Sequence record: JF770475
DNA: 47,180 nt
DNA from: Escherichia phage phiEB49
Direction: 5' to 3' (one strand)
The position numbers and the translations under genes were made by a program. Of the stretch, positions 40,171 to 40,522 are shown in pieces. The notes beneath the pieces are model-generated. The model had not been told where the DNA came from. It saw nothing but the letters and a program-made list of their open reading frames with translations, and ran no database searches. How positions within the stretch are numbered: position 1 is the stretch's first letter; every line of letters begins with the position of its first letter.

Positions 40171-40315
40171 GTTTATCATAGCTTTTGTGGTTACTCGAAT
40201 TTTACCTCGAACTTTATTGATGATGTATCAATGCCATCTCTTTCAAAGTCCTTAACACACAATAGCGTATCGTCGAACTTTGTCTTAGTAACCACTTCGC
40301 CATTAATGTAATATT

Positions 40316-40522
40316 TTAATTGCTTTTTTTATTGATAAATTCATCTGGAATCAGCACCTCGAAATCATAGGTGTCACCTGGGATAATTACTCCATGAAAT
40401 CCATCGTCATCAGTCACTTTTAAGAATCCGAAAGACCCAGCTGACGTTGATAGCTCATAAATTTTACCAAAAGTAAAATTAAGATAACCATTTTTCTTGT
40501 AACCTTTAAATACTGCTTTCAT
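40316..40522 (-). CDS. moron protein paralog, N-terminal part; reading frame continues in -1 frame to 40191 after an A7 tract
   Basis: 68-aa ORF homologous to N-terminus of 25855..26220; -1 frame after AATAAAAAAAGC encodes homolog of its C-terminus ending FEVKFE. Confidence 0.45.
   Translation of the reverse strand: MKAVFKGYKKNGYLNFTFGKIYELSTSAGSFGFLKVTDDDGFHGVIIPGDTYDFEVLIPDEFINKKSN

Follow-up and report, generated by a model that had tools for sequence, protein, structure and literature searches.

A frame break at an A7 run in gp57, a duplicated two-domain accessory gene of Escherichia phage phiEB49, and its possible origin in a homopolymer-length miscall

Why does one of two related small genes in the structural module of Escherichia phage phiEB49 stop at a run of seven adenines, with a second reading frame left open behind the run? 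The two genes are gp37, between tail genes L and K, and gp57, between the genes for the large terminase subunit (TerL) and the portal protein; the window analysed here is the whole 47,180-nucleotide stretch of record JF770475. A sequence-only reading had described them as paralogous moron cassettes, each with its own dyad promoter, leader and terminator, and had offered three accounts of the break in gp57: programmed frameshifting or transcriptional slippage, a recent pseudogene, or a sequencing error. We examined the paralogy of the two genes, the state of the run in relatives, the base-call quality of the records that carry it and the recoding signals around it.

The proposed paralogy is borne out by formal comparison. 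With the run extended to A8, the 110-aa gp57 product aligns with gp37 over its full length (33% identity, pairwise E 4e-10), and the extension read in the -1 frame, aligned alone, matches the gp37 C-terminus with 39.5% identity over 43 aa (E 2.6e-8), which confirms the homology claimed earlier for this segment. A family HMM built from 27 homologues, the window sequences left out, matches gp57 in two pieces, with positions 1-66 at 40319..40549 (E 1.2e-24) and positions 74-118 at 40194..40328 (E 2.3e-24), and it matches gp37 at 25858..26223 (E 6e-12). The family is already catalogued as PHROG 14592: residues 1-110 of the repaired gp57 correspond to positions 2-116 of the 116 in phrog_14592 (E 1.3e-38), and both gp37 (E 1e-42) and Rtp22 match the profile over its whole length. 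Since the two halves of gp57 match the family in two different frames, the gene is truly split at the A run, and gp57 and gp37 are paralogues. Judged by these matches, gp57 appears to be an ordinary member of a conserved two-domain Drexlerviridae accessory family of about 110-140 aa. Pfam searches on the neighbouring genes identified Phage_tail_L, an NlpC/P60+JAB (K-like) protein, the terminase large subunit and the portal.

The annotated gp57 ORF ends ...AAT AAA AAA AGC AAT TAA, and the -1 frame entered from the run encodes KQLKYYINGEVVTKTKFDDTLLCVKDFERDGIDTSSIKFEVKFE; one additional A joins the two parts into a single ORF (Table 1). ORF reading and profile match thus agree with the earlier description of a TerL-portal copy broken precisely at A7, its C-terminal domain being kept in the -1 frame. 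Beyond the run, the zero frame stops after two codons in phiEB49 and continues for 34 unrelated residues in ACG-M12; it is not conserved. The intrinsic terminator is placed after the stop of the -1 frame and not after the 68-aa ORF. Relative to EC3a, the -1-frame part carries nine synonymous and three non-synonymous differences, which indicates that the break is either recent or not real.

Table 1. Positions in the window of the two paralogous cassettes and of the recurring dyad element
Feature	Position	Strand	Remark
gp57 gene in the form found in intact relatives	40191..40522	-	110 aa if A8; two frames here
gp57, annotated 68-aa ORF	40316..40522	-	ATG at 40522, stop 40316..40318
A7 run, site of the frame break	40324..40330	-	T7 on + strand
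C-terminal beta-beta-alpha-beta domain, -1 frame	40194..40323	-	TAA at 40191..40193
gp57 promoter-like dyad AAATAGCACGAATTACTAAAGA (TAGCA-N5-TaCTA)	40576..40597	-	repeated motif
gp57 -10-like TATATT	40552..40557	-	sequence
gp57 leader and Shine-Dalgarno 20-mer TCACACAAACGAGAGGAGAT	40528..40547	-	exact match to gp37 cassette
gp57 intrinsic terminator, hairpin then T run	40153..40169	-	annotated as terminator in EC3a
gp37, intact paralogue, 121 aa	25855..26220	-	between tail genes L and K
gp37 promoter-like dyad	26275..26296	-	repeated motif; exact consensus match
gp37 leader 20-mer	26226..26245	-	same 20-mer as gp57
gp37 terminator	25814..25835	-	hairpin
Dyad sites (examples), part 1	588(+), 1265(+), 1728(+), 5572(-), 7065(-), 8500(-), 10896(-), 17137(-), 19728(+)		
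Dyad sites (examples), part 2	26294(-), 28001(-), 32943(-), 35448(-), 40595(-), 44976(-), 45292(-), 46109(-)		

The closest records belong to Guelphviruses (Drexlerviridae/Braunvirinae), ACG-M12 being 88.5% identical over 39900..40900 and 97% identical over the gp57 gene. EC3a, the nearest intact relative for which DNA is available, has A8 at the same site (AAT AAA AAA AAG) and an unbroken 110-aa ORF. The run site reads AAAGAAAAG in SU57 and PCEc3 and AAAGAAAGG in G8, all three of which are intact, and in-frame runs of A4-A6 occupy the same Lys-Lys position in Rtp, JK06, 2725-N35, T145P1 and one IMG/VR relative. At the protein level, 29 of the 32 homologue clusters are full-length (110-141 aa), and the short remainder comprises the A7 cluster itself, one partial sequence and P0023, whose frame is broken separately at a C run. 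P0005 and P0006, which fall within EC3a's 90% cluster and derive from Logan/ENA assemblies, are represented by protein sequences only and are intact with INKKKQ at this site; the N-terminus of P0006 is of the ACG-M12 type and the C-terminus of P0005 of the phiEB49/ACG-M12 type. Scans of IMG/VR, JGI metagenomes and GTDB yielded EC3a itself, one contig with a different frameshift and one distant relative. Across this collection the A7 break is not conserved among gp57 homologues. The homologue on MAUZ01000002.1 22662..25992 has its C-run frameshift near 1640..1660 (ATCCCCAGG vs ATCCCAGG), and the corresponding 73-aa protein, P0023, is annotated from an internal out-of-frame ATG.

The position of the break relative to the predicted fold was examined for the EC3a orthologue with an AlphaFold2 model (mean pLDDT 86.6, from an alignment of 28 sequences). 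Residues 1-58 form an SH3-like beta-barrel and residues 69-110 a beta-beta-alpha-beta unit; the disordered stretch between them, residues 59-67, is exactly the linker in which the A run lies. On this model, a barrel of the SH3-like type at the N-terminus is joined to a small alpha/beta domain at the C-terminus by a Lys-rich linker that varies within the family. The 68-aa ORF of gp57 corresponds to the N-terminal SH3-like beta-barrel domain, and superposition of the BFVD Gp57 model on this domain of our model gives a TMt of 0.83. Stand-alone barrels related to this domain may also occur elsewhere in the phiEB49 genome: the family profile picks up the 67-aa ORF at 6783..6986(-) weakly with its N-domain part (E 0.017), and phiEB49 Gp10 (57 aa) is among the fold matches.

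The account that we consider somewhat probable is that the frame break reflects a miscalled homopolymer length, the record being an early next-generation one. The run of Lys codons in the linker would have been read as A7 where the true run would be A8, and phiEB49 would really make the full-length 110-aa gp57 protein. The difference between the phiEB49 and EC3a alleles has the form typical of such errors, namely a change of +/-1 in length, at a run of at least six, that breaks an otherwise conserved ORF. Carriers of A7 are limited to phiEB49 (published in 2011), ACG-M12, SCS31 and ECH1. ACG-M12, the sole A7 record with an established sequencing platform, was sequenced by 454 pyrosequencing (PMC3347319). 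SCS31 (ON081052.1) and ECH1 (MN164484.2) share with ACG-M12 a length of 46,054 bp and identical CDS coordinates, and over 636 nt they differ from it by 28-30 substitutions (about 95.5% identity) and zero indels. The same length and coordinates and the lack of any indel suggest that both records are reference-guided and not independent of ACG-M12 where indels are concerned. The account is also favoured by the single A that restores a full-length family member, by the intact relatives, by the undamaged -1 frame with its mainly synonymous differences from EC3a, by the terminator placed after the long gene and by the unconserved zero-frame continuation. From these observations we infer an erroneous base call in phiEB49 itself.

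Several further comparisons bear on the quality of the phiEB49 record. Two of them speak against a miscall: A8 is called at two other runs, and no other frameshift was found relative to the ORFs of EC3a or Rogue1, so the sequence is not generally error-ridden. A second frameshift considered near 18300 was rejected, as it reflects an over-extended EC3a annotation: EC3a gp44 (NC_047812.1 26617..27048; 143 aa, GTG start) is apparently too long, only its last roughly 65 aa being conserved, and this conserved end corresponds to a 64-aa phiEB49 ORF at 18094..18288(-) with its own promoter-like element. When homopolymer lengths were compared at orthologous sites of EC3a, Rogue1 and ACG-M12, the sites were too few for a systematic undercall to be shown. 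The T run in the gp57 terminator (40148..40153) counts six bases in phiEB49, again as in ACG-M12, and seven in EC3a; this shorter run fits either lineage-specific variation or systematic undercalling. Searches by exact protein match with gp57, TerL, portal, TerS and the neighbouring HNH protein found no independent phiEB49 assembly, and a search with the capsid protein reached an ENA scaffold that begins inside the portal gene and is only 88-93% related over the head region.

It is possible, if on balance doubtful, that A7 is real and arose by a recent A8-to-A7 replication-slippage deletion, either in nature or during laboratory propagation, which truncated a non-essential gene. Only the 68-aa N-terminal barrel would then be made and the C-terminal part would be a very young pseudogene remnant; A8 would be a mutational hot spot that could act as an unprogrammed on/off polymorphism. 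The 97% identity of the gene in phiEB49 and ACG-M12, two differently isolated phages, means that A7 may be an allele shared by descent. The gene is dispensable for this type of phage, as Rogue1 lacks it between TerL and portal, and the 68-aa product is a complete domain of a kind (about 60-aa stand-alone barrels) that is common in these phages. The different homopolymer frameshift of the MAUZ01000002 homologue and the otherwise frameshift-free phiEB49 sequence also fit a genuine deletion. Against a genuine deletion, the truncated cluster consists of GenBank records only, whereas the intact INKKKQ cluster includes Logan/ENA members, and the platform behind ACG-M12 is prone to homopolymer errors, with SCS31 and ECH1 adding nothing independent. 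Furthermore, the C-terminal part shows no further damage: it holds one of the seven differences between the phiEB49 and ACG-M12 genes, a contrast that is not significant, the numbers being too small to test.

Programmed or 'saviour' recoding, either ribosomal (tRNA-Lys slipping by -1 at U AAA AAA A) or through an A inserted by the host polymerase at the A7 run, would provide a fixed minority of full-length protein beside the 68-aa N-domain, i.e., two isoforms from gp57; we regard it as very improbable. Lys codons in an A run are a classic slippery context in E. coli, and such a run stands at the break. The C-terminal frame is perfectly kept in every A7 record, the break falls exactly in the disordered interdomain linker (pLDDT <50 at residues 62-64), and intact A8 alleles hold the canonical heptamer A_AAA_AAG in frame. 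In gp57 itself, however, a canonical slippery heptamer is absent from the zero frame, where AAU AAA AAA AGC gives U_AAA_AAA, and re-pairing of the P-site with UAA would be mismatched. No well-placed stimulator was found at the run, either as an upstream Shine-Dalgarno (SD) sequence or as a downstream structure: the nearest SD-like element, GAGGTG, lies 24 nt upstream vs a working distance of 10-14 nt, and the sole notable downstream stem (z -2.6) starts about 40 nt from the run vs a spacing of 5-9 nt. Nor is there conservation of the slip site or of overlapping frames, the relatives being single ORFs, most of them without a long A run, and the corresponding place in gp37 contains no such run.

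Transcriptional slippage meets a similar difficulty. Slippage by E. coli RNA polymerase has been described for runs of at least seven T and for A runs longer than that (PMC6260861), and at a length of 9 nt, counter-selection of slippage-prone runs can typically be seen (PMC1088944). The gp57 run lies under this threshold (about 8-9 or more; >7 for A with the E. coli enzyme) and is shorter than the length for efficient slippage by that polymerase. No RNA polymerase gene was seen among the large ORFs of phiEB49 or in the annotations of its relatives, and host transcription is therefore assumed. Overall, the A8 of EC3a, the distant relatives without a long run and the confinement of A7 to 454-era records and their apparent derivatives favour a miscall or a recent mutation over recoding. 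Of the three accounts offered initially, error and recent mutation are thus the ones to which the evidence points, and it points away from programmed frameshifting and slippage, as the arrangement is unconserved and the signals are poor. That the A7/A8 linker run is a real slippage-prone switch in Guelphvirus-type phages, acting in replication, transcription or translation, is hardly to be expected; if true, it would yield either the N-domain alone or the full two-domain protein, and an accessory protein that is transcribed independently, from low-GC DNA embedded in the packaging and tail modules, would then be subject to recoding or phase variation.

Both genes are framed by the regulatory elements that had been ascribed to them. 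The leader 20-mer lies just 5' of the ATG and is an exact match common to gp37 and gp57 only; AAATAGCACGAATT(G/A)CTAAAGA is found upstream of both, and both terminators have the form AAACTAG-hairpin-TTTTTTATTGGAG. The earlier description of a dyad, leader and terminator for each cassette therefore stands, with a putative promoter recognised from a repeated motif, except that the dyad is not special to this pair: TAGCA-N5-TGCTA is found some 18 times across the genome, and each time a TATAnT follows after about 22 nt, together with a leader of similar sequence. Besides gp37 and gp57, the genes behind these copies are small ones at the two ends of the genome, genes for replication and recombination, and four HNH genes of the structural module. 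The repeated element reads AAATAGCAC-N5-TGCTAAAG, and the conserved leader before the start codon reads TCAyCGAAACGAGAGGA. The dyad is centred near -42 relative to the presumed start of transcription, a geometry that would suit an activator-dependent promoter, and a Cro/YdaS-like HTH protein encoded at 10901..11383 is a candidate binder.

Base composition and distribution speak to the origin of the cassettes. Their GC content is 33-35%, whereas the genome as a whole has 44% and the genes on either side have 42-47%. In Rogue1 both cassettes are absent, TerL-portal and L-K being directly adjacent, and EC3a is without the L-K copy, its L and K genes being neighbours. A gp37-type copy is also present in ACG-M12, SU57, G8 and BEK6, its L-K location being shown for ACG-M12. 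The low GC content and the absence from some relatives make the description as independent, acquired cassettes reasonable. The term moron is apt only loosely: insertion between otherwise adjacent genes, low GC and the terminators agree with it, but the Drexlerviridae are not known to be temperate, and there would be no lysogen in which such genes could be expressed. Among 5,426 complete E. coli genomes and in plasmids, no match to the gp57 gene region was found.

The anti-defence role suggested in the earlier reading would be hypothetical: searches of Pfam, NCBIfam, PADLOC and PDB sequences gave no hits that would point to a function of gp37 or gp57, and fold searches returned generic SH3-like hits only. 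The term 'virion structural protein' used in RefSeq and PHROGs is only a database label for this family. The main value of the present analysis lies in annotation correction: phiEB49 gp57 (68 aa) and ACG-M12 gp63 (102 aa) are probably mis-modelled forms of a 110-aa protein, and the truncated and chimeric sequences have already spread to UniProt, BFVD and PHROGs. ACG-M12 gp63 (NC_019404.1 6039..6347) consists of the N-domain plus 34 out-of-frame residues reached through the same A7, its true C-domain lying in the -1 frame. Elsewhere in the window, ARAGORN placed adjacent tRNA-Val(aac) and tRNA-Arg(cct) genes at 43830..43983(-), where relatives are annotated with a single tRNA-Arg. More broadly, the two genes exemplify a duplicated, low-GC, separately terminated accessory gene among the essential packaging and tail genes of many T1-like coliphages, and nothing in the evidence on them appears to indicate a new mechanism.

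Comparison with known systems places the locus in context. The members of PHROG 14592 include Rtp rtp22, JK06 JK_35, EC3a gp67 and ACG-M12 gp63/gp45; gp57 lies between TerL and portal, as do its counterparts in Rtp, JK06 and the Guelphviruses, and gp37 lies between L and K, as in ACG-M12, but the TerL-portal copy in the phiEB49 record is split at A7. The cassettes resemble lambdoid morons in that an extra low-GC gene, equipped with a promoter-like element and a terminator, is inserted where relatives have two genes side by side; they differ in that the promoter-like element is of the phage's own common type. The free-standing HNH homing-endonuclease cassettes of phiEB49 are likewise inserted between essential structural genes with the same dyad upstream, whereas neither a nuclease motif nor any detectable domain was found in gp37 and gp57. 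Four paralogous HNH_3 genes lie between structural genes, at 42154..42642(-), 34853..35377(-), 32390..32872(-) and 27450..27929(-), two of them with an AP2 domain. The small beta-barrel protein Gp54 of Bas11 (PDB 9axb), a trigger of CapRelSJ46, shows 13% identity and scores like any generic SH3-like barrel, and is a lead only. Frameshifting of the dnaX/IS3 type (A_AAA_AAG, upstream SD, downstream hairpin) resembles the gp57 site in its run of Lys codons and in a -1 shift that reaches a C-terminal extension, but in gp57 the heptamer is out of register, no stimulator lies in range and the layout is unconserved. Finally, transcriptional slippage is known to rescue indels at A9/T9 runs in IS elements, Shigella mxiE and Citrobacter tssM (PMC1088944, PMC4256274); the gp57 run is similarly one base short, such that one inserted A in the mRNA would restore the ORF, yet unlike those sites it is only A7 and is not conserved.
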